Notes under the pieces: model-generated | Database searches by the model: none | Told to the model about the DNA's origin: nothing | What the model saw: the letters and a program-made list of their open reading frames with translations, nothing else | Shown: one piece after another, positions 9,523-45,108 of the stretch | Numbering within the stretch: position 1 is the stretch's first letter | Layout of the letters: each line of letters starts with the position of its first letter | Source: Eremomyces bilateralis CBS 781.70 | Lineage: Eukaryota | Length of the DNA stretch: 47,935 nucleotides | Assembly (NCBI GenBank): GCA_010015585.1 | Contig: ML975164.1 | Reading direction: 5' to 3' (one strand) | Translations under genes and position numbers: made by a program

Positions 9523-11697
9523 TCATACAAACGCTCCAGGTGCCGCGCCCGGCCCTCCGCTACTCGCACCTCCCTGTCCTTCTCCACCACCACCATCCCC
9601 TCCTTCGGGTCTACTATGCCTCCGATACGCCTCCCACTCCTCCACCTTCTCATCCACCTCACTAAACTCACTCTCATCCTCACTATTCTTCCTCTCCTCC
9701 CTCCCTGGCACCTCCCACGCCTCATCATCGCTATACCCCAAATTCTCACTCTCCCCCTCCTCCCTCCGCCCCCCGACCCCTTCCTCCTCCAACGTCCGTG
9801 AATCCCCACTCACCAAACCCAACCGCTCCTCCTCCGTCGTCCCCGGCCCCGAGCTGTCCTTCCGATTAAACGACAGCGCGCCCCGCAACCCCGGACGCCG
9901 CTCGCCATGGAGCAACGACTTCCCGAGCACCGGCGACGACGCCGCGGCGGGGTGGCCTGCGGCCGCGTCGTGCGGGTAGGTGGGGCCATCGTCGCTGCGG
10001 TGGCGGTGGAAGACGTTTTGGAAGGAGAATTGGCGGCGACCGGAATCGGTGCCGTGTGGTGGCGGGGTGGGTGGGGATGATGGGGGCGCGTCGACGGAAG
10101 GGGCCCATTGGATGGAGACGGCGGGCGGTTTGGAGGAGTCGGGGTCGGAGACTTTGCGGAGGCCGGAGGGGAGGCCGTAGACGTGGGTGGAGGTGGTGCG
10201 GTCGGTGCTGGTGGTGGGTGAGTGGTCGGGGGGGAGGGAGGAGAGGGGGAGGGAGCGGTTGGGTGCGGTGCTGGTGGAGTCACCGCGGCGGCGGAGGGAG
10301 AATTTGCTGAAGAAGCCGGGGTGGTAGTCGGAGTCGGTGTCGGAGGCATCGCTGGGGAAGTGCGACATGCCGAGGGGGGGGTGGACGGTTTTGCTGCGTT
10401 GGAGGGTAGTGGGGTGGCCGGGGTCGTGGACGGTTTTTCGGCGTCGGAGGCCGTCCCATTCGACTTGCTCGCCTTCGCGGATCGGCTCCATGCGCTCGTC
10501 ATGCAGGCGCTTCGCTTCTTCGATCTGGCGATGCTGCCGGGCGGAGGAAAGGGAGCGGAGGATGGCGGCGCCACCGCGGATGGAGTCGGCGCGGGGCTCG
10601 GATTCGGGCTCTTCTTGCTCGGCGACGGTGCGCACTTGGTCGAGATCGCCTTTGAAGACGGCGGCGTCGGGGACGTCTTTGGCGGATTTGGAGAGCTGGA
10701 GGAGGACGACGCCGGCGCAGATTTGGAGGAAGCCCAAGACGCAGGTGGCGATCTGGGCGGGAGTGCCTTTGAAGCCGCGGAAGAGGATGGCAGAGGTGAT
10801 GATGGTGCAGCTGGTGAAGAAGACGTAGTAGGTGGGCGTGACGAGTGCGGCGTTGAAGAGGTTCAAGGCTTTCTGGGGACGGTTAGAGTGAATAGGGGAC
10901 CGGGGAGAGGAACGTACGTTGAGAAAGATGATCTCGGTGACCAGTGTCGCGATGACGAATACCAACAGGACATAGAGGAACCACTGGTTGAACTGTGGCG
11001 TACCACCGGCCTGTGCGACAATCGCCGCACCGAGACCTTGCGTTGCGACAACACTAAGTCCGCCAATGGTACTGCAGATGGTCAAGTACACCATCATGCT
11101 CTTCTTCCCCCATCGTGGACCGGCCCAGAACGCGGTGAAGATGCACCCCACGATTATGACGCCCGTATAGGTAAGAAACCCGGGCGATATCACCAACGGC
11201 TGCATCTGCTGGATGGTTGCCACGGCCGACTGGGACGGCGCATTAACAACAATCACCACTGAACCGAGAATGCAATTGAGGCACCCGACCTTCCCCACGA
11301 AACTCAGCCGTTCCTTCAGGAAGATCGCTGACAGGATCGTGGTCACCACGACAGACAGCGCCCCCAGCGGCGTCACCAAGATGGCATCGACGAACGCATA
11401 CGCAACGAAATTGCAGATCTCCCCGACGATCATCAGGGTCATGCCGGTCCACCACCACGCGTTCTTGAGATATCCATACCCCTCGCCCGCCTCTTCATTG
11501 TATTTCTCGTTCGCCTTCAGCAAGCCCACTTTCTTCACCACGAACGACACGCCGATGAACAGCCCCGAGGCGATTGCGAGGACGATCCCGACGACTTTGT
11601 AGACCGGGGGTCGGTTGGCCGGGTCCCCCCCGATCCCGCCGCTGCGTATATATAGATGTGCGCCCTCGACGGCAGCATTCGCGGGGTTGAGAATCAT
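9523..11697 (-). CDS. NIPA/DUF803 family magnesium transporter
   Basis: YKVVGIVLAIASGLFIGVSFVVKKVGL...GYLKNAWWWTGMTLMIVGEICNFVAYAF..AILVTPLGALSV...KALNLFNAALVTPTYYVFFT. First in-frame ATG at 11697; 45-nt intron 10873-10917; long low-complexity C-terminal tail. Confidence 0.93.
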   Translation of the reverse strand: MILNPANAAVEGAHLYIRSGGIGGDPANRPPVYKVVGIVLAIASGLFIGVSFVVKKVGLLKANEKYNEEAGEGYGYLKNAWWWTGMTLMIVGEICNFVAYAFVDAILVTPLGALSVVVTTILSAIFLKERLSFVGKVGCLNCILGSVVIVVNAPSQSAVATIQQMQPLVISPGFLTYTGVIIVGCIFTAFWAGPRWGKKSMMVYLTICSTIGGLSVVATQGLGAAIVAQAGGTPQFNQWFLYVLLVFVIATLVTEIIFLNVRSSPRSPIHSNRPQKALNLFNAALVTPTYYVFFTSCTIITSAILFRGFKGTPAQIATCVLGFLQICAGVVLLQLSKSAKDVPDAAVFKGDLDQVRTVAEQEEPESEPRADSIRGGAAILRSLSSARQHRQIEEAKRLHDERMEPIREGEQVEWDGLRRRKTVHDPGHPTTLQRSKTVHPPLGMSHFPSDASDTDSDYHPGFFSKFSLRRRGDSTSTAPNRSLPLSSLPPDHSPTTSTDRTTSTHVYGLPSGLRKVSDPDSSKPPAVSIQWAPSVDAPPSSPPTPPPHGTDSGRRQFSFQNVFHRHRSDDGPTYPHDAAAGHPAAASSPVLGKSLLHGERRPGLRGALSFNRKDSSGPGTTEEERLGLVSGDSRTLEEEGVGGRREEGESENLGYSDDEAWEVPGREERKNSEDESEFSEVDEKVEEWEAYRRHSRPEGGDGGGGEGQGGASSGGPGAAPGAFV

Positions 11698-12772
11698 GTC
11701 GAGTATGTATAGGGGGTGAATGAAGGGTCGGTGAGGTGGAGAGTTGGAAAGTCGGGGATATGTCGTTGCTTTCGGTGCGCATATGGACAGGAGGGGTATT
11801 AGGTGTAGGTTCAGATCGTATTGGCGTCTTATCGTGGCGGCGGCATTCTGTTGTGATGTTGCGATGGGATGAAGAGTTCTCGGTCGGGTGGTACGTTGTC
11901 GTTGCGGTGATATGTGGTCACCTTCCAGTTCAGGTTTCAAGTTTCAACCCGTTCCTGTCCCGCAATACGGAGTAGAATTCGATGTATTCCAAGTTCCAGG
12001 GTTGCCCGCCGATCGTCGCCTTCGAGATTCAAGATTGACGCCGGTGGCTGAGCAGGTCGAGTCGAGTGGCAACTCCGCAGTTGGTCCAATGGCGGTCTAG
12101 AACTCTTGGAGCAAAGACTGGAGATGAAATGGGATTCACTTTCAAAGATATACGCAAAAACACCGAATCCGAAGGAGGATATTAATTGCCGACAAGAGTT
12201 TTGCAAAGAGCGAGGTTTCAGCTTAGGAGGAGGAGGCGCAGTAAGAGGTAAGTATGGAATTGTGGAGGACGGGATGACGGGATTCGGGGTCAACAAGGCT
12301 CGTGGGAACAAGGTATTATGTTGCCAATGAACAGGTGGAAGACTGCATTCATAGAAACGTTGCACAAAGACGGACTGGAAAGAATGCGAATTGAATGAAC
12401 AGTAAATAGTAAGCATTAATCATACGTACGGAGGTATTGCCTGATACTACCTCGCCTCACCTCCGAGTGCCAGTGAGAACTCATGTGCAGTCCAACAACC
12501 CGATGGGGCAAATGGGAGGTTCGCGTCTGTTGCTGGGGCATCGACGAGACACAGCATGACTGAAGATGTGAGAGACGGTGGATCTCCCTTGTTTCATCTT
12601 TCAGGGTTCCACCTGCGTCGGGATTCTGGCCAAAGAATTATCTCCCGGTCCAGGTTCTAGTCTCCAAATATCCAGTATTAATGCCACGCGTCAGCTAGAT
12701 TTCTATCTTGGTGCTGTTCGAATTTGGAACAGCTCGAAAGTCGAAGCGACTCGTGAAACAGCTCACCTCATA

Positions 12773-33159: not shown

Positions 33160-34735
33160 TGTGACTATAACCCTTTCTAGTGTCCTGAGACGTGATCAAC
33201 TCAACCACTAGTGTTACCGAGAGGGTTGGACGGCTACAGCGGCCTTAGCGATGTATATTTTAAAGATCGTGTTGTTGGTGGAACTTAGAAGATAGGGTCG
33301 ACCCGACATTGATACGTTGACTGACAAACCGCCTTGCTCTGAGCCTCTGACTCATTTTCTTCTTATTGGCGTCACGTGGCTGACGAGTCTCTCAGTCGAA
33401 TTTGTGTTCGTACAGTCCTGTTACAGCTCAGCAAGATTTCGGTCTGACCAAAGCAGAATATAGGACTGTCGAGTTCTATAGAGAATCAGAAGCATTCGAA
33501 GAAAGCGGTATCATTTTATCCCATTTGTTAGAGATTGTTGTTTTACCTACATATAATGGTGAATCTCAAAATTTGGCAAATCTACAGACAGCCAGACTGA
33601 TTTTGGACGCATGTAGTAATTCCTCCGAGAACCTTGGAATGGTTAATTGACCAATACTGAACTTTCATACAATAGATAGCTTAGGCGAGTTCAAATACAT
33701 ACATAGTTCGATTGGTCTAACTTCGTAGGTACTAGCTTCGGCAAAAAAATTCCTTGGCAAACTATTGAAAAGAAGTTTTGCGGTGCTAGGCGGAAGCCGA
33801 TTTTGCTAATGACTGTATCATCGTTCTTGAAGGTTGCAAATTGCAAATCGCAAATCCAATTTTGATGTCTATGAAGTTGTTGTCACGTGGAGTGACAAAC
33901 AGTTGTGGAGACGATTGAGAACTTTTGGCGAATCTTTCGTTGACATACCACTAACCACACAGCATTACAGTAGTTATGGCATCGGAATGATTTAAGGGCG
34001 AACCATCAAAATGCCATTCCATACTGCAGATCGGGAACCCATATCCTGATTCGGCTTCCTTAGACGCTGGAAGGAGATCTGTTGTGGATGATACGTGCCG
34101 AGAGACCAACTTGAAATTCTCCACTCCTCCACGTTTTCCCCAGAAACCGGTGGCTATCCATATCCGGGGACCGAATCGCATTGTCTCGAAGGTGGATCCA
34201 TAGGATATTGTAAGCCCTCGGCGGCTCGGCCCCTCCATATGACCATCTGATATCGCGGGGTGCGGCTTACCTGATGGCTACTTTGCATGAATGTCTCTTT
34301 ATACGAAGAGATGGCGAGGTTCAGGACCCAAATTCTTGTGGTGCCACGATCCTATCTCGCTTTCCGAACTCGCCTACAAATCTTTGAGTTGTATCATTCT
34401 TATTTACAAGCCCTTCGGTGCATTTGAACCGAAAACAACCGGGTGAAAGAGTAAATTCTTCTCTAGCGTGCTACATGGACAGAGTTCCGTCTTTCCCGTC
34501 TTACCGAGTTAAGGTATTGTGCGTCTTCGGCCTCCAATCAGAATGGTCTCCCCTCAGTCTGACTGGAAACCTTTAGATATATTTCTGCCATGAGACTTTT
34601 CCTTCTTCAATTGGGTTTGCAAGAGTTATTTCCAAGTCAATAGGATTGTATTCTGCATTTCCGCGCTAGAAGTCCGTTGTTTGCAATGTCATATCAGTCC
34701 CGTCGGTACCATACCCAATAACTCGCAGGTAAACC

Positions 34736-36542
34736 ATGGATACAACCATTACAAGTTTACCGAAGTCTGTAGAGGACCAAGGAGCGATCCTTACCAAGCT
34801 CCGCAGTCGAGATTCTACCGCACCTCCTATCGATCCCGAGAAACCGTCCACCCAAGAGAGCAACACAAGTACCCTTGACAAGTTCGACGGCATCCAAGGC
34901 AAAGACCTCGAAGCAGGATACGGGGAATTCTGTCCACAGAAAGAAGCCAAACCCACCGAAACACGCATTGAACGCTTGTCAATATCCCCTTCAGACGATG
35001 ATACCCCCGACAACCCGAACCTGGTGGCATGGGACGGGGTAGACGATCCGCAAAACCCAATGAACTGGCCTAACTCTCGGCGTTGGAGCCACATCGGCAT
35101 CGTCAGCGCTCTCACGTTCTTTGTTGGGCTCTGTTCGTCAATGTTCGCCCCCGGCGTCCCGCAACTGATGCGGCAATTCGACTCCACCAACGAAGCGCTC
35201 GGATCATTCGTGGTGACCGTGTTCGTCCTTGGCCTCGCTGCAGGGCCCGTTGTCTTTGCCCCTCTGTCGGAGTTGAAAGGACGGTATATTGTGCAGCATA
35301 TTGGGACAGTGGGGTTCACCGCATTCACGATTGCGTGTGCATTGGCACCCAATATGGAGGGCCTGATTGTTATAAGGTTATTTCAAGGGATCTTCGGGTC
35401 GGTGGGGATCACCAATGGAGGAGCAATCATCTCCGACATTGTCAAACAGGAGGAAAGAGGCGTGGCGCTCAGCATGTATTCGTATGGCGTGCTCTTCGGA
35501 CCTATTATTGGCCCCATCGCTGGAGGTTTCCTGAACACCGCCAAGGGATGGCGCTGGGTGTTCTGGGTTCTCAGTATATGCGTAAGCTCACCATACCTCT
35601 CAAACAACGAATCCTCGAATCTGATTTACCGTAGCTGGGCGTCATCACCTGTCTCTCCTTCCTGATTTGGAGAGAATCCTACGAACCATTTCTCCTCCGC
35701 AAAAAAGCCGCCAGGTTACGGCAAGAGACAGGCAACCTAGCCCTCCGCTCGGAGTACGACTCCGATCTCCCTCCCCGCGTCCACTTCGCAAGGGGGATCG
35801 CCCGAGCGATATGCATGCTCATTTTCTCACCCGTCGTCCTCTCTCTCTCCATCTACACCGGCCTCGTATACGCGTACTTCTACCTCCTATTCACCACGTT
35901 CACGTCCATCTTCTCCGGCATCTACAACTTCAGTACTGACATCGTCGGCCTTTCGTTCGTCGGCGTCGGTGTCGGTTTCCTCATTGGCCAGATCGCCTTC
36001 TCGAACATCAGCGACCGATTGTTGAAAAGTCTCGCGGCGAAGCGCGGGGGCGGATTCAAGCCGGAATATCGCATGCCGCCGTGCCTGATTGGCGCTGTAT
36101 GTATTCCCATCGGTCTCTTCTGGTACGGGTGGGCAGCCCAAGCACGTGCACATTGGATCGTGCCGCTCATTGGAACTTCATTTGTAGGACTGGGAAATTC
36201 GATCATCTTCGTAAGTGGAACCCCAGCTCACGAATCCCCTACCCACGGTAGACGCTTCGTTCTCAACTCTTCTAACCCTTGCAGATGAGCATCACCACTT
36301 ATACCATTGACGCATATGGCATGTATTCCGCCTCTGCACTCGCAGCAAACACGGTAACCCGATCCATCATGGCTGCCGTTCTCCCGCTCGCCGCACCCCC
36401 CATGTACGCGGCGCTTGGTATCGGGTGGGGCAATTCCCTGCTCGCATTTTTGGCGATAGCCATGATGCCAGTACCGTGGCTGCTGTTCAAATATGGCGAG
36501 CGGTTACGGAGGGTGAATGTCGAGAAGTTCACGTACATTTGA
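34736..36542 (+). CDS. MFS transporter, DHA1 (drug:H+ antiporter 1) family
   Basis: VAWDGVDDPQNPMNWP, SSMFAPGVPQLM..F, APLSELKGR, GPIIGPIAGGFL...GWRWVFW, KPEYRMP, YSASALAANT..RS. Introns 35582-35634 and 36211-36284. Confidence 0.93.
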
Positions 36543-38065
36543 TGTGGCATCGGGGGGTAGATTTTGTGAGAGACGACGGGCAGATTCCGTGTCGTTAGAT
36601 CACGTATCATGATGGATGATGGGTTATGATATAGGAATATAGAAAGGTACACGCAAAATGCAATGGCGTCGAGGGGGGGAATGTCTTTTTACTAGGTATA
36701 ATGTGTCTCCCGGCGGTATTGAACTTTCAACGGTACATACCCTCGAGAAGGACTAGCAGCTGGGAAACGAGGATGGAGGGAGGTATCGTATTTCAAGAAC
36801 AAAATACATGAGAAGACCTATTCAAGAAGCGTGCCCGTTCCTCGTTTCTAATTATGTTTCCCCTGGGTCTATCGCAGGCCTCCCTCCACGATGGGGCTCT
36901 GACGGTTGATGACGCCACCTTGACTACCTATTGACCTACCTCTCTACTCAATAATCCTTACAGTACGATTCGGGCAGGATGGATGGTATGCTAGCTCCTA
37001 ACCACCGCAGTCTGCGTTCGGTCTCATCCTGCTATACTCAGAGCTATCAGTCCCACAGGACCATCTTCTTCAGTTCGACGAACGTATGTTGAGCCGTGCG
37101 AAGACCACCAGCCCTACGAATTCGTCGTTGAGAGACCAACTCCTCTCTCATAAGCATTTCCAGCTGAAGAGACCATCCGAGGACCTTGAATTGCATTTGA
37201 TTTTGCAGACTCTTGGGCGTCCAAACCTAAGAGACCTTTATAGAAGATGTTAAAGCCGGGAGGATCGAGCATCCAGTGTGGAGGTAGATGGTTAAAACCG
37301 GGGGGATTATGGCAGTCAAGCGTAGACAGCCCACCTAGTACACACGTATTGCATGTAGATACCGAGTATTGATAGAAACTGTAAACAATGAAATGTGATA
37401 TTTTGGAAATGGGTTGAATATAAAATATATTGGCAGCGTTGGCTCTTTGAATCGTTTGTGTTATGACTGAAACTTCCGGGAGCAGACCATGTAGTAAATT
37501 AGGACCTTATATAACTTCATCATGAAGATAACGGGGCTAATATGGGGCAAGCGTACACATTACCAGTAAGTATTCAATAAGCCGAGACGAAACTACGGCA
37601 AAGTGCACTCTTACTGTCGGCCATGATCGAATTGCCGTTGCCTTCGCAGAGAGTTCACGATCGAACGATGATGGCGTGACCCAAGTAAGTTCCATCGCCC
37701 GCCTCCGGCCCCGTTACCAATCACCAGTCACATCCCGTCGCATCAGATCCGTCTTCAAATAGCATCATTCCGTGCATTGAAATATCGTATTTGATTTCAT
37801 TGTTCTTGATGGAAGATGATGTACCGAAGCCACCCATATCTTTTCCAAGAAAAAAGTATGTACACAAATTTCGAAACCGCGCCCCGACTCCGCCAAAGAT
37901 TGAGCGAAGTGTTACGAAAACGGGAGAAAATAATTAGCGCGTCTCGCAACGAGCATTACGGAAGGTGTTCGTCATTTTTCTTTCCCTGGACGAGCATTCT
38001 GAATGATCAGCTGCTAACGTCGCCCACTACACCCGTGCGCAGGCGGGAATCTGACCATTTCCATT

Positions 38066-38891
38066 TCAAGCCGCCGCAGCGGACGCACCCTCCGTTACCC
38101 TCTCGACCTCGATCTTTGGCATCGCTGCTCCCGTGCCACCTAGATCCGACACCTTGGCGTTGGGGTTCTTGGAGTAATAATTCGAGATGGCAGACTTGAT
38201 GGCGTCTTCGGCGAGCATGGAGCAATGAACTGCATGCAAATCAGCCTTCATCCAGACAAAAGAACTTCCTCATTCCTCGAGGCCCATAAAAACCCCGTCC
38301 TCGAGGTTCCGAATGGAAAATTAGTTACTTACGCTTCACAGGCGGCAAACACAACTCCTTCGCAATCTCCGTATTCTGGATCTTTGCCGCGTCCTCTAGC
38401 GTCATGCCACGCACCAGCTCCGTCAGATAGCTGCTCGACGCGATGGCCGAACCGCAGCCGAACGTCTTGAATTTCACCTCCGAGATGGTGTTGTCCGCGG
38501 GGTCGACGCGGATCTGCAGCTTCATCACGTCGCCGCACGCCGGGGCGCCGACCAGGCCGGTGCCGACATCGGCGTCGTTCTTCGGCATCGATCCGACGTT
38601 GCGGGGGCGGCTGTAGTGGTCGAGGAGTGATGGGGGGGTTAGCGGAGCGTTCGTGATAGAGAATATAAAAAAAGATGGGAACCATTCAAAGTTGATCTCC
38701 AGGGGGTTTTGATGGATGCTTGATGGTGTCGAGGGTCAAAGGGTACACTTATCTTTCTCATGATATGACCGCCGTGACTCGATCATCGGCGCCGCAGCAG
38801 CGACGCGATGTGTCGAGGAGATGGATGGACGAGCGGTGGAGAGAAGGGCGCCGGCCCGCTTCGGGGCGACGGCGAGGGCTCTGCGCATCAT
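38066..38891 (-). CDS. ISU1: Mitochondrial iron-sulfur cluster scaffold protein Isu1/IscU
   Basis: Presequence MMRRALAVAPKR..., YHEK|VLDHYSRPRNVGS, VGTGLVGAPACGDVMKLQI, KFKTFGCGSAIASSS, IAKELCLPPVK|LHCSMLAEDAIK. Intron 2 is GT-AG (38230-38332); intron 1 is best read as AT-AC (38627-38752). Confidence 0.96.
38627..38752 (-). other. Non-canonical AT-AC intron in ISU1 (U2-like signals)
   Basis: Minus strand: GAG AAA G|ATAAGTGTACC...CGCTAACCCCCCCATCAC|TC CTC GAC CAC TAC. Joining gives GTC and restores K-V-L-D-H-Y. Confidence 0.8.
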
Positions 38892-39486
38892 GGCGCCGTG
38901 TAGGTATGCGTGGACCGGGTTCGATGAGCGATGGGATCGGTAACTATTCGTGGGGTGAATTGAATTTCGTCGTGGTCGGGAGGTGTAGGTGGTGATGGAG
39001 GTGGTGATGTAGGATATCAAAGTGATGTTTGAGGTTGGGTGGTGGAAAAAGGTGAATGGGCGGATTACCTCATGAGCCTTGGCTGGAGTGACTGGACGCA
39101 GTTTCTGTGGCGAATCACCCCGCCGAATTACGTTTTAGTGGGGACATTCGCGTCACGTGGATACTGGATTGGTGTTTATCGCCGACTCGGCAGATCCTAT
39201 CACCGAGGTTTAGCGGAGTGTCCGCGGAGGTGGTATTCCTTTGTATACAGATATCACTGCGTGCCTGGTGTCCATGTCCTTTGTACTCGAGGCATCCACC
39301 CATGTTTTCAATGGCCCTGGTGGATATACATGTACGACAATCCGAAAGGAGGTTGGCCCTCATCGGCTCCTCATGATGCATGTCTATCGGAAGACAACCC
39401 CGAGCGAACGGTCTGTCCCGTGCTCTAAGCCTAAACTCCATGAATGCGCTATTGATGTCATGCTATGCAATCGAAGCGTCCCGTGC

Positions 39487-41891
39487 TTAAACCCTCCGTA
39501 AGAAATAGACGTATGCAAACTTCTTCATCTCATCCGCGTCGACCGCCTGCGCGACCTTCTCATCATTGAAAAGCACCCAAGCGGACTGCGACCCTTCCGG
39601 AAGCGCTTTCTTCACGAAAGCTACGTAATGTCTGATATACTCCGTTAGCGAAATTTCATCGATGGAAATTTGTATGGCGACATCACGTACCCAGCGTGGA
39701 TCGAAGACCCCTTGTGGCAGACAATCGACTCCAGCTTAAAGTTCGCGGGCGTCTCTGCACTGCCAGCGAGTGGCTTGTCACCCGTCGGTGCATTCTCCTC
39801 TGCAACCTCGTCCAATACACCGGGGTCATCGAGGTGGGAAAATGCCCATTCGGCGGCGAGATTCACATCGCCGTTGGTCTCCTTCAACGCCTTCTTAGCA
39901 AGCGGCCCTTCAACACCGAGTGCCGCCAACATCTCCACCGAGGCGGGATCGGCGGCGGGGCTGGATGAATTGCCGCCGACGTTCAACGGCTGGTTGATCG
40001 CGTCGTCTTCCATGTGTTCCATCAGCCAATTCAGCGCGGCTTCGGCGTTCGTGTTCCCGGTGGCGTGCAGCGCGTGTTCGCATTGAACACGCGGGAAGCC
40101 CATCGTTTCGAGCACGGTTAATGCTTCTTCGTTAGGGACGAATTTCGGGGTCCTGTCGGCATCTTCGGGTAGGAGCTCTTCGCCGGGCTGGAGTCCTGGG
40201 GATAGGTATTGGTCGAGCGTGATGGCCTCGTCCTCGACGATAACGGGGACGTCGTGCTTCGTGGGAACCCAGTTGACGAGACCGAACCGCCGAGCGTTGA
40301 TCGCCAGCGTGGTTGGGAGGGTTTTGAAGAGGGATTGTTTGGTGAAGCCGTCCTTGCTCTGGCAGGCAGGGCAGGTTAATTCGACGGTTTCAGGGGCGGT
40401 GAACAGATCGAGGCACTCTTTCAGAGTAACCGGCTCATAGGTCTCCTTATCTTCGGATGAGGCGTTCGCTTCTCGGGGGACTTTTCGTATCGGTACCGGA
40501 ATCGAAATGTTCTCTTGCTCGTCGACCTTATATCGCACCTTCTTGCATGCATTGCATTGAAGCTTCTGCTCCATCGCGAATCGGAAAATATCCACGGGAT
40601 TCCGAAGCGGAGCATCGTGTTTCGATTTGCCGATCATCTCAAACAGGTGGAGAAGGTATTCGAACGAATCTTGCTGCCTCATCGTGGAGAACTCTTCGTG
40701 TCCTTTCCCAACCAGGGATTTGAACATGGCTGGGGCGAGCCCTTTCTGCCAGGTCACTTCCTCGGACCCCTCCGGTACTTTGACATCCTTGTCTGGGTTC
40801 GAGTATCGGCCGGAAAGCAAGCCGTCTGCGACCTTTCTCATTTGAGTCTCGAAGTCTTCGGCGGGTTTCGAGGTCGATGTCGGTCCCGATACCTGATTGA
40901 AGTACCGCTCCTGAAACTCCGGCATGGCGAACAACGCCTGCAACGAGCTGTTCATATAACAGCTGTTTCCCAGGTTCTTCAGCCCCGTGAACCCCTTCCC
41001 AAACACCGGCTTGATCTCCTTCCCATCCTCGGTTGTCATCGAGAACTCCCACCGCAAATTCTGCTCAATCTGCATCTCCGTCAGGCTCTTCTCCGTCTTC
41101 TGTCGATCCGCAATGTTGATCCCCCAGTGCGCCAGATGCTCCGTGAGCTTCGGGTCTTTCCGCTCGTCGTCACACGCATAGCAGTAGATGTCTGCCGTCC
41201 CGTCCGCCGTCAGCGACCCCAGCTTGACCGCCACTGCATGCTTCGTCGCATCCGTGTGCGCGAGCCCGTGCGAGTTCCCACCCCCGCCTCCAAACTGCGC
41301 GCGTCCGCACCCCAGATTGCCGCACGTTAAGCACAGCCAGAGGTTCTCGTTCAGTTCGCACATCGAGCAGTGCCCCAGATCCTGCGAATCGATCGCCCGC
41401 GGCGGTTCCTGCTCTAGGAATGCCGTATGGTCACAGATCGTCAGCTCCTGCTCCCACGCCTTCACTTCCTCCTGCTTCGCGAACGTATTGGCCCTCAACA
41501 CCGCGTTCACCACCTCCACCAGCGCCCCCTGCGAGCCATCCACATTCTCCACCCTGCACTCCAGGCACCTCACCTGCGTTGCCGTGTCATACCGATCCGC
41601 CTCCGTCTCCGCCGAGATGGCAAGCTTGGTGAGCTTCTGCGGCGGCTCGTCGCGGTCGACGACTTTCCTCGTCCGTTTGATATTGAGGACTAGGGGGTGC
41701 TTGGACGTCTCATAGTGGAGTTTGTTGTGTTGCCGGTCGCCTGCACAGCCGCCGTTGTAGCAGGATAGGCAGACGTCGAGCCCGGCGGGGTCGTCGATAC
41801 TGTCGAAGCAGATGGTGCAATCTTCGCGATAGACGGATTCGCTGGGGCGAGGAGGACGGAGGGAGGAGGAGGAGGCATGAGGGCATGCCAT
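39487..41891 (-). CDS. UBP14: Ubiquitin carboxyl-terminal hydrolase 14 (USP5/USP13 orthologue; zf-UBP + UCH + UBA)
   Basis: VYREDCTICFD, NLWLCLTCGNLGCGRAQFGG.GGNSH, TGLKNLGNSCYMNS (Cys box), MRQQDSFEYL, UBA MGFPR...ALHATGN, HKGSSIHAG|HYVAF (His box; intron 39632-39690), WVLFNDEKV...AYVYFLRRV*. Confidence 0.96.
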
Positions 41892-42384
41892 TTTGGGTTG
41901 ACTGGAATTGGAAAGGAAATGGGTGTCTGGTAGGTTGTTTGACGGATTTTCTAGAATGTATTGTTTCCGGAAGCTTCAGTTTGTTTTGAGTGATCTCATA
42001 AGTTACATGTATGGGTTGGGTGGGGTAGCGGGGTGAGGCGCCGAGGCTACAAGGCAACGTCACATTCTGATAGATTCAAATCTGCTTGTTTTTCTTGTCC
42101 AGTCCCGCAATGTGAACTCAATGCGAACTCAATGCAAACGGTTCTTTCAAATATCAAACTTTTTATTATTAAGTATCCAATATTTTCATGGTATCTAACG
42201 GATGAAATCTAAGATGTATCTAAGACTCGTATCTAAGGAGTCTTCTATCGCTCCCAGATCGACCAAAACCGCTGAAAGGGATAAGAGTGCTTCATCAAGC
42301 AAATTATTATAAGATGCCCTCCAAAAGTTGCGTGGAAAGGTATCTTCTTCAAGTCGCCACTATACTCCAGAATATGCATTTCCT

Positions 42385-44151
42385 TTATTTCTTGACCTCC
42401 TCCTCTGCAGGCTCGCCGGCATAGGCAAACCTGGACTTCGTCCTGACCTTCGCTCCTCTGTAGTAGAAGAAGAAGGGGATGATACAACATGCACAGCCCA
42501 GGAATGCCAGGAGGGTGGTCGCCCACTGGTATCCCATACCAGCGTACATTTGATTGGTGAAGAGCACTACAGCAGCACCGCAGAATGATCGGATCAACGT
42601 CTTTGCGGCCATGGCGCTGGCAGCCTGGTGGGTATACGAATCAACTGGAGCATTGTTAGCATCGTTCAACACGATCATCGTTTCAGTACACTTACCAAGA
42701 TAATTGTTCGCAGAGTTGTACAGGAAGATGAAGCCGAATCCGACAGGGAGCCCAGCTAGACATGGTCCCACCCAGGTCAATCGCGGATATGAAGTCCAGG
42801 CGAAGATGAAGAGGCCGATTGGAATGAACCAGCAAGACAACATCATGGGAATCAACCGGACCTCCGGGGGAGGCCTGTTGTTGTGCTTCCGGCACAACTT
42901 GATGTAGTGCTTGTTGACGAGGGGGCTCATCGCCGCGCTGAACATGACACCCGCTGCCAGTGGAATGAACATCAGACCTGTCTGCCATGGTTCCCAACCC
43001 TTACCCTCTTCGAAGACAATGGGGTATGCCACGAAGAAGACGTAGAGGAGCGAGTACAAGAGGGACATGTATAACGAGATGAACAGGACGATCGGTTCGA
43101 GGAAGAGCAGTTGCAGAGGCCGGATGAGGAAGATCCGCATCTGCTGGGAGAATGGTCGCGTGTCCAAATCCTGCTCGGTGACATATTTGTTGTCCCCCGT
43201 TTCCTTCCGCAGCTTCTTCGCTCTCTTTTTGAGCAACGCCGGGGTATATGTTTCGGGGACGAAGAAGGCCATGACGATCCAAATCGCGCCGGTAATGATC
43301 AGCTGGATGTAGTACAACCATCTCCATCCGAGCGGGACGAGGAATCCACCGATCAGCGGACCGATCGCAGGGCCAATGAACGGAGCAGCAGAGAAGAAAG
43401 CCATCGGGACGCCCCGTTCCTCCGCCTTCCAGATGTCGGCAAGCGTCCCGGCGACCAGTGTCATGGGAGCCGAGATCGCAATACCGCCGAGCGCACGTCC
43501 AACCAGCAGGGTTTCGATGTTCTTCGCCACTGCGCAGGGGATGATGAATATGACAGACAAGCCGAGCGTCACCGTGTATACAGGCCACCGTCCCAGCTGC
43601 TCGCTCAGCGGCGCGAAAGCCAGCGGCCCCACACCGAACCCAACGACGAACAACGAGATGGCGAGCAGCGACACGGTGGAACTGACGCCGAACTCCTTTT
43701 GGGGGCCCTTGACGTCCGCTGTGATGACGGAGCTGTCCAACGCGACCACGAACGCCGAGAGCGCCACCGCCATCGTCACCCACCACTTCTTCCATTTCGG
43801 CCAGTTCTTCGGGTTCTCGGGGTCGCCGACCTTCCAGGTGACGAGCTCGTATCGTTCGATCTGCCCTGTTGCTTGGGATCGCACTTCTTTCAGCATGTGG
43901 CCCGCAGCCGTTTCTTCGGTGTACTCAGTGATGTTGGCAGTGTCGTTGAGGACTCGTGATGGGAGGTTGAGGAGGTCGCCGCCGTCGGGGTCATCCATTG
44001 GACGGTGGACGACATTGGTGGCTACCGAGCGGATTGGTTCGAGGTGAGGGTCGTGATGTGTGGTGGTGGTGGGGGACACGGGGCGTGAGGCCTTCTCAAG
44101 GTCTGTGGTAGTCCAAGACTCCGTATCAGATGAATGATTCTTGGAATCCAT
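42385..44151 (-). CDS. MFS transporter, DHA1 family (Tpo-like polyamine/drug transporter)
   Basis: VTWKVGDPENPKNW, LFVVGFGVGPLAFAPLSEQLGR, FSAAPFIGPAIGPLIGGFL, PETYTPALL, PPEVRLIPMM, LYNSANNYL|VDSY.HQAASAMAAKT. 51-nt intron 42645-42695. Confidence 0.94.
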   Translation of the reverse strand: MDSKNHSSDTESWTTTDLEKASRPVSPTTTTHHDPHLEPIRSVATNVVHRPMDDPDGGDLLNLPSRVLNDTANITEYTEETAAGHMLKEVRSQATGQIERYELVTWKVGDPENPKNWPKWKKWWVTMAVALSAFVVALDSSVITADVKGPQKEFGVSSTVSLLAISLFVVGFGVGPLAFAPLSEQLGRWPVYTVTLGLSVIFIIPCAVAKNIETLLVGRALGGIAISAPMTLVAGTLADIWKAEERGVPMAFFSAAPFIGPAIGPLIGGFLVPLGWRWLYYIQLIITGAIWIVMAFFVPETYTPALLKKRAKKLRKETGDNKYVTEQDLDTRPFSQQMRIFLIRPLQLLFLEPIVLFISLYMSLLYSLLYVFFVAYPIVFEEGKGWEPWQTGLMFIPLAAGVMFSAAMSPLVNKHYIKLCRKHNNRPPPEVRLIPMMLSCWFIPIGLFIFAWTSYPRLTWVGPCLAGLPVGFGFIFLYNSANNYLGKCTETMIVLNDANNAPVDSYTHQAASAMAAKTLIRSFCGAAVVLFTNQMYAGMGYQWATTLLAFLGCACCIIPFFFYYRGAKVRTKSRFAYAGEPAEEEVKK

Positions 44152-45108
44152 GGTGAGGAAACCCAAAGCTGCTAGTGTGTGACGATCCTCTAGAATAATT
44201 GAATGGAACTAGATGTAGCTGGAGGACATATCGGTACCCACGAAGGGACGCCACATAATATATATACTCCATGCTGCAGTTCTTTCGGAGAGAGTCGTAG
44301 ATTGTTCGGAAGGGAATTTGCCGACTGTAACCTTATATTGAATGGAGAAGTGGAGGCTATTTGGAAACCCTTTGCCACCTTCTCATGCTACAATCGTAAA
44401 AGGGATCTCCCGACTTTCGGTCCCAACCAGCGCCAGCCTTACAAGATACATGAACACCGCGACCGAGACCTTCGTCTTCTAGCATTTCCCTCCGAGATTC
44501 CCAATCGGTTAATAGACCTCGATACATTCAAACAATTGCAATTGATTAGTGTTGACCATGATAAATTCCCAATTCCTTACCTACCTGTTGGGCCAAACTA
44601 TGACACCAACAAATGAAGTCATGGAGTCCGGTGCGTATCCCCGAACCTGCCCCGAAAATCCGAGCTATACCCATCCCAATCCCGAGCCTAGAAATTTCCA
44701 CGCGACGCTGCCGTCGTTCCGATTTTCAATGGAACATCTTAAGTCAAAATATCTGTCAAATACATAACCGCGACCCCGTGCGTGATGATTCTGGTGAACA
44801 GGTTTTATCGATGCGGTCGAGATCCGACCCGGGGCTGGAAATGCGGAAGCAGTCCGCGACTACGCGAGCATCCCTACCGTGGAATCCGACGTCAACAGAT
44901 CAAAGATTCGTTCATCATGGGAAGCTTTCATTAACACGGTCCATTTTGGGTGGCTTTGGGATGATATGGAAGCTTCGATGTTGAGAATAGTGTCCTCTCT
45001 TCTGGCCTTAGATGCACTTATGGTACCGGGAGAGGGGTCTCAGGACTCAGGAGTAATCCTATTATTGTCTCTGTAAATCACGGCGAGTGCTGCTTTAATC
45101 ATCGGGCA

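Follow-up and report, generated by a model that had tools for sequence, protein, structure and literature searches.

A U2-type AT-AC intron in the ISU1 gene of Eremomyces bilateralis and its relatives among the Pezizomycotina

Does the gene for the Fe-S cluster scaffold ISU1 (IscU), whose counterpart in yeast has an essential function, contain an intron that begins with AT and ends with AC, and, if so, which spliceosome takes it out? The question is raised by a window of 47,935 nt, the whole stretch of DNA analysed here, from contig ML975164.1 of the dothideomycete Eremomyces bilateralis CBS 781.70. An earlier, sequence-only reading of this window had placed such an intron near the start of ISU1. 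We followed it up through the gene model, sequencing runs, related genomic loci and public protein models.

The ISU1 gene and its first junction

On the minus strand of the window, exon 1 closes with the codons TAT CAT GAG AAA and a single G at 38753 (Table 1). Intron 1 begins with ATAAGT and ends with CATCAC (38752-38627); once it is removed, the G of exon 1 and the TC of exon 2 make up GTC, and the protein reads YHEK-VLDHYSRPRNVGS. Joining 38891-38753, 38626-38333 and 38229-38066 gives a coding sequence of 597 nt that translates exactly into P0003, the public E. bilateralis CBS 781.70 protein named FeS cluster assembly scaffold IscU (198 aa, with Pfam PF01592 precomputed). The same protein was 100% identical to our query in a protein search with the exon 2 region, and over exon 2 the identity to named fungal ISU1/IscU proteins is 89-96%. 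The AT-AC junction is already in the public annotation: the deposited IscU model uses it, and the gene model is not new.

The sequence-only reading had named the gene as ISU1, taken G/ATAAGT for a GTAAGT donor with its first G changed to A, put a branch site GCTAAC about 11 nt before CATCAC/TC CTC GAC CAC TAC, and predicted both that excision of 126 nt would rebuild GTC and YHEKVLDHY and that retention would run into a TGA at 38736. All of this holds. The spliced model is that of the public protein with its PF01592 domain, the donor is correct to the base, and 11 nt lie between GCTAAC and the 3' end of the intron. The joined translation restores the motif, and, the intron length being a multiple of three, retention leaves the frame unchanged and reaches the stop at 38736-38738.

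Table 1. Features of the ISU1 locus, with positions in the window
Feature	Positions	Strand	Remarks
ISU1 exon 1	38753..38891	-	ATG 38891-38889; mitochondrial presequence ...SRRSYHEK; last base G 38753, phase 1
ISU1 intron 1, AT-AC, 126 nt	38627..38752	-	sequence and X3 contig joint
Intron 1 5' splice site ATAAGT, after exonic G	38747..38752	-	U2-type GTAAGT with G1>A
In-frame TGA reached upon retention of intron 1	38736..38738	-	sequence
Branch-site-like GCTAAC	38638..38643	-	predicted branch A 38639, 12 nt from 3' splice site
Intron 1 3' end CAC (terminal AC)	38627..38629	-	sequence and X3 joint
ISU1 exon 2	38333..38626	-	opens TC CTC GAC CAC TAC = (V)LDHY; IscU domain core
ISU1 intron 2, 103 nt, ordinary GTAAGT..CAG	38230..38332	-	X3 joint 38229 to 38333
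ISU1 exon 3 with stop codon 38066-38068	38066..38229	-	joined CDS

Sequencing runs were aligned to positions 37900-39100, namely X1 (DNA), X3 (RNA-like), and X4 and X9 from relatives. X3 bears the label of the same organism and comes from another sample and study; its RNA nature was guessed by the tool. The RNA check called for by the sequence-only reading comes out in its favour: one X3 contig joins 38626 to 38753 exactly, skipping 126 nt with an ambiguity of 0, at a depth of 5421 and with 29 letters on its shorter side. The ends of this joint read GT..AT on the plus strand, that is AT..AC on the strand of the gene, and the joined form is that of P0003. A second contig joins 38229 to 38333 across intron 2 (depth 6857), with CT..AC on the plus strand and hence GT..AG on the minus strand. 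The X3 contigs hold no other joint around intron 1, and so no GT-AG alternative there. X3 may be the data behind the public annotation, in which case the RNA joint and the match to P0003 are perhaps not independent. Among the relatives, X4 and X9 cover the exons in part and contain no junction of intron 1; a single X4 contig (depth 2.9), identical to the window, extends 12 nt into the intron unspliced.

Some features of the surroundings may be recorded here. Directly upstream of ISU1, a long open reading frame (39645-41975, minus strand) resembles, by eye, a ubiquitin-specific protease that carries a zinc-finger UBP domain and a UBA-like tail, and the flanking frames at 34733-36288 (plus) and 42385-44208 (minus) look, again by eye, like major-facilitator transporters. 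X3 also holds two GT..AG joints on the plus strand, from 37962 to 38041 (skipping 78) and from 37966 to 38043 (skipping 76). They fall just past the ISU1 stop codon and indicate a spliced transcript of the opposite strand, which has no convincing open reading frame.

Counterparts of the intron in other fungi

A metagenome scan left 80 loci, of which L001-L008 were examined (Table 2); L009-L080, at 64-72% identity, were set aside as presumably bacterial like L008, the one locus read in that range. The sequence-only reading had proposed conservation at this phase-1 position as a check, and the loci examined bear it out: all three related genomic loci that have an intron between YHEK and VLDHY (L001, L005 and L007) show AT..AC ends there, in phase 1. 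Their introns share the plan AAAG/ATAAGT or ATACGT, then CTAAC, then AC/T. The terminal dinucleotides are directly visible in four loci only, these three and the window, and in all four CTAAC lies 11-21 nt from the 3' end of intron 1 and intron 2 is GT..AG. Because an RNA contig junction, an exact public protein and the same termini in three of three related loci agree, the match to an AT-AC intron is not one of chance.

Table 2. Related loci at the YHEK/VLDHY site (a slash marks an exon-intron border)
Locus	Description	Site	Intron 1
L001	genomic, 22.7-kb contig, 91% identity	AAAG/ATAAGT...GCTAACATTCCCCTCAC/TGCTCGAC	105 nt
L005	genomic, 86% identity	AAAG/ATAAGT...CAACTAACTCCCACAAAC/TCCTAGAC	128 nt
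L007	genomic, 14.8-kb contig	AAAG/ATACGT...AGCTAACATGTTTCCCTCCAGCTGCAC/TTCTCGAT	90 nt
L002-L004	about 1 kb, cDNA-like	YHEKVLDHY already joined	
L006	genomic, 76% identity	intron-less	
L008	2.6-kb contig, 71% identity; read as bacterial-type gene	upstream frame stops, then new ATG (MAYSNK VIDHY)	

One exon of L007 shares 99% identity with IscU from Terfezia boudieri, a member of the Pezizomycetes and thus outside the leotiomyceta clade that contains the Dothideomycetes. Comparison of these loci shows AT..AC ends to be kept between the Dothideomycetes and a Terfezia-like member of the Pezizomycetes, from which we infer that intron 1 dates back to the early Pezizomycotina. L007 also has, at about 1594-1665, an extra GT..AG intron within the equivalent of exon 2 of the window, after ...GAPAC. 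In L008, the 600 bp upstream contain no YHEK-type motif.

Public protein models extend the comparison to many more assemblies. Set 1 comprised the 120 hits of the exon 2 region search and set 2 a further 80 new proteins from a later search. In set 1, 82 of the 120 are canonical (YHxK, then V) and 34 run in from the intron. All 34 begin L-LDHY, and the preceding residue is A (11), L (9), S (7), V (5) or P (2), for each of which a codon ending in A is possible. The remainder are two bacterial-like doubled forms, one model that starts MLDHY and one (P0119) that is otherwise mis-spliced. Nine models of this set contain YHEKD, as expected of GAT (G/AT), and wherever YHEK occurs in the set, the next residue is V or D. 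Set 2 holds 33 canonical models in 80, 16 read-ins of the L-LDHY kind, two uninformative fragments that start directly at VLDHY, and 29 models that do not have the motif, most of which start at an internal Met just downstream and three of which are mis-spliced (P0278, P0288, P0289); four further models contain YHEKD (P0243, P0278, P0289, P0290). The read-ins thus come to 50 (34 and 16), every one of them L-LDHY, which implies a CTN codon and therefore a C as the last base of the intron.

Named species whose models show these signatures, L-LDHY or YHEKD, are Glonium stellatum, Coniosporium apollinis, Lophiostoma macrostomum, Dothidotthia symphoricarpi, Westerdykella ornata, Paraphaeosphaeria minitans, P. 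sporulosa, Periconia macrospinosa, Aaosphaeria arxii and Byssothecium circinans, together with Geoglossum umbratile, Trichoglossum hirsutum, Pycnora praestabilis, Candelina mexicana, Cirrosporium novae-zelandiae (Xylobotryomycetes), Terfezia boudieri and T. claveryi. With a query from the Xylariaceae, 114 of 114 proteins, mostly from Sordariomycetes, were canonical at the protein level, as were three models from Eurotiomycetes (Rasamsonia, Exophiala and Neophaeococcomyces). In these two classes the AT-AC intron may be absent or converted; the site there may have no intron, a GT-AG one, or a correct annotation. The AT-AC state is accordingly not shown to be universal by such protein-level comparisons.

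The prediction that Isu1 N-termini would be mis-annotated as 'YHEKD...' is borne out by 13 public models, and many more are truncated. A bogus 'YHEKD...LLDHY' insertion is thus found in at least 13 public ISU1 models, and dozens more are cut short, either at the intron or by starting from an internal Met. The errors affect both the mitochondrial presequence and the conserved motif at the N-terminus, in a protein of wide use to Fe-S research and phylogenomics; that gene finders restricted to GT-AG mis-predict the N-terminus of ISU1 is the practical effect of intron 1. Starts at an internal Met (...GSM(P/S)K.D.DVGTG) are seen in many public fungal models, among them those from Geoglossum simile, Candelaria pacifica, Lambiella, Loxospora and Lignoscripta, and ISU1 models of this kind have neither the presequence nor the YHEKVLDHY motif. 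Two bacterial-type IscU proteins, P0002 and P0004, from contigs of about 0.75-1 kb, carry the N-terminal half-domain twice in tandem, perhaps through duplication or as an assembly chimera.

Splice signals and the spliceosome

It is very likely that 38627-38752 is a genuine spliceosomal AT-AC intron of ISU1/IscU, taken out by the ordinary major spliceosome, which depends on U2. By definition, the 5' site of a U2-type AT-AC intron departs from the U2 consensus in nothing but the terminal dinucleotides (PMC1557818). Intron 1 starts with AT and ends with AC, both in the sequence and in the joint ends of X3, and +1 is the one position at which its 5' site, G/ATAAGT, differs from the GTAAGT donor of intron 2. 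Dependence on the major spliceosome is what we infer from these signals. The donor would keep every position of the fungal GTAAGT consensus that pairs with U1 and U6, save the first, and CTAAC, 12 nt before the 3' end, would act as the branch site. An A as first base would be tolerated because the last base is C and not G, the A-first/C-last pair standing in for the usual G-G contact of the second catalytic step. The compensation is taken from the genetics of the yeast actin intron, in which double mutants (G1>A with the last G>C) reportedly show that the second-step defect of an A in first position is suppressed by a C in the last. Those mutant introns are laboratory products, reportedly spliced with reduced efficiency, as against the natural and long-maintained intron of ISU1.

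One might speculate that such termini were kept as a regulated, slow-splicing checkpoint, for example through iron-responsive retention that leads to NMD by way of the in-frame TGA. That rare termini have been conserved for so long would fit this, and so would the premature stop that retention produces in four of four loci and the abundance of unspliced contigs in X3. We nevertheless regard a checkpoint as improbable. Across the four loci, nothing in the interior of intron 1 aligns beyond the 5' site, CTAAC and the terminal AC, so that no conserved element other than the splice signals is apparent. The unspliced contigs of X3 are deeper than the joined ones in a similar proportion at both introns, 10697 (38598-38746) to 5421 at intron 1 and 12057 (38201-38361) to 6857 at the GT-AG intron 2, which is a weak measure. 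The unspliced contigs could be DNA, pre-mRNA or a transcript of the antisense strand, and the opposite-strand transcript noted above may supply such cover over the ISU1 introns. Moreover, either single reversion of the A-first/C-last pair would be expected to break splicing; the pair would be mutationally trapped, and its long conservation would be explicable without any function. A role of intron 1 in iron-responsive retention and NMD thus finds no support in our data.

Depth in X3 was tried as a measure of retention and rejected, as contig depths cannot rank the parts of a gene and the contigs are strandless. An X3 contig upstream of the gene (39006-39100) has a depth of 10059, and the intron-covering and upstream contigs all lie at about 10,000-12,000; those of exon 1 total more than 100,000, in depths that are not comparable between contigs.

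Removal of intron 1 by the major spliceosome has also to be weighed against the minor one. U12-type introns have a 5' box ATATCC and a branch consensus of the TCCTTAAC type, about 10-15 nt from the 3' end, whereas CTAAC is the branch consensus of ordinary fungal introns. A U12-type identity of intron 1 would account for its AT-AC termini, its phase of 1 and a branch-like motif just 12 nt from the 3' end, a spacing like that of U12-type introns. It is, however, very unlikely. As the sequence-only reading had pointed out, the signals are U2-type and the U12 donor ATATCC is absent: the 5' site is ATAAGT in the window, L001 and L005 and ATACGT in L007. The distance between the branch A of CTAAC and the 3' end is 21 nt in L007 and 11-12 nt in the other three loci, and both motif and spacing fit ordinary fungal U2 introns too. 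In ordinary introns of the filamentous ascomycete Trichoderma longibrachiatum the branch offset has a median of 15 bp and a peak at 11-14 bp (PMC4324775). The reading had further assumed that most ascomycetes lack the minor spliceosome, and this agrees with the literature: convincing minor introns or snRNAs are described as absent from Ascomycota, and minor introns from Basidiomycota as well, amounting to complete absence from Dikarya (PMC10639083), and Ascomycota and Pezizomycotina are listed among groups without U12 splicing (PMC2846911). An Rfam scan of the 48-kb window found no family at threshold and hence no minor snRNA, in a piece too small for this to be informative. In Arabidopsis, AT-AC introns are reported to require the U5 protein DROL1/Dim2, which is missing from the two yeasts looked at in that work.

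Two readings would do away with the AT-AC intron altogether. AG occurs between the donor and exon 2 only at 38720 and 38698, and the next is the TACAG at 38612. Enumeration gave two in-frame GT-AG options, GTGTAC (38748) to CAG (38611), of 138 nt, and another of 30 nt, judged too short to be an intron. The longer one, which the sequence-only reading had described as in frame and as deleting VLDHY, indeed yields YHEKDNRPRNVGS and drops VLDHYS. As the sole in-frame GT-AG choice of plausible length it might be the true, canonical intron, with a protein that goes without VLDHYS; we hold this to be extremely unlikely, given that X3 has no such joint, that the donor is weak, that the motif deleted is found in all 82 canonical models of the 120-hit set, and that the public protein and the transcripts of relatives carry YHEKVLDHY. 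That AT and AC are assembly or sequencing errors in a normal GT-AG intron can practically be dismissed: X1 and X2 are DNA runs that are possibly the source of the window, so that the single 15,309-letter X1 contig, identical to it across 37900-39100 and free of any joined form (the joined sequence is thus absent as DNA in X1), is no independent check of the termini, but two independent errors would be needed, the same AT..AC stands in three related genomic contigs from separate metagenome records, and among models from many assemblies 50 of 50 read-ins imply a terminal C and 13 of 13 read-outs imply G/AT.

Known AT-AC introns and a possible origin

Intron 1 of ISU1 is a real and deeply conserved member of a known rare class, the U2-type AT-AC introns. 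According to PMC1557818, these number 24 of 608,562 U2-type introns in five species and make up 0.003% of all introns, and experimental proof was at that time limited to the human SCN4A and SCN5A introns. The latter ('type II') resemble that of ISU1 in their AT-AC ends with an otherwise U2-consensus 5' site, and in borders conserved across distant species within an extremely rare class (PMC1557818). ISU1 differs from them in its host, a filamentous ascomycete from a group reported to have no minor spliceosome, where splicing would depend on U1, U2, U4 and U6. The same paper mentions that some xylanase genes of filamentous fungi have been hypothesised to contain AT-AC II introns. These share with ISU1 the kind of host and a presumed use of the major spliceosome (PMC1557818); they lie in a different gene, and ISU1 adds an RNA junction and conservation across classes. 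With U12-type AT-AC introns, that of ISU1 has in common the termini, a non-zero phase and a short distance from branch to 3' end; it differs in having no U12-type 5' box and in belonging to a lineage reported without minor snRNAs.

AT-AC introns are rare in fungal annotations, according to PMC7072748. In the open-access literature, taken without its supplements, we found no account linking AT-AC to ISU1/IscU and no description of a conserved AT-AC intron in Pezizomycotina; a search of the open-access literature likewise found, among the matches listed, nothing that names ISCU as a minor-intron gene.

It is conceivable, if doubtful, that intron 1 is a molecular fossil. When Dikarya lost the minor spliceosome, an ancestral U12-type AT-AC intron at an ancient position would have lived on, with a 5' site and a branch site that turned U2-type and termini that became locked as A-first and C-last. 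In most classes of Pezizomycotina it would then have stayed frozen through hundreds of millions of years, whereas some, for example the Sordariomycetes, would have lost or converted it. If this were true, a true U12-type intron would be expected at the same phase-1 site of ISU1 in Glomeromycotina, Zoopagomycota and Mucoromycota, groups that have retained minor splicing. ISU1 intron 1 offers a clean test case for the conversion of U12-type into U2-type introns.

U2-type AT-AC introns are among the rarest of intron classes, and few of those outside vertebrates are known to be supported by RNA. Intron 1 of ISU1, which lies in a core mitochondrial gene and is kept from relatives of truffles to the Dothideomycetes, would provide the genetics of filamentous fungi with a natural case of the major spliceosome handling an A-first/C-last intron.
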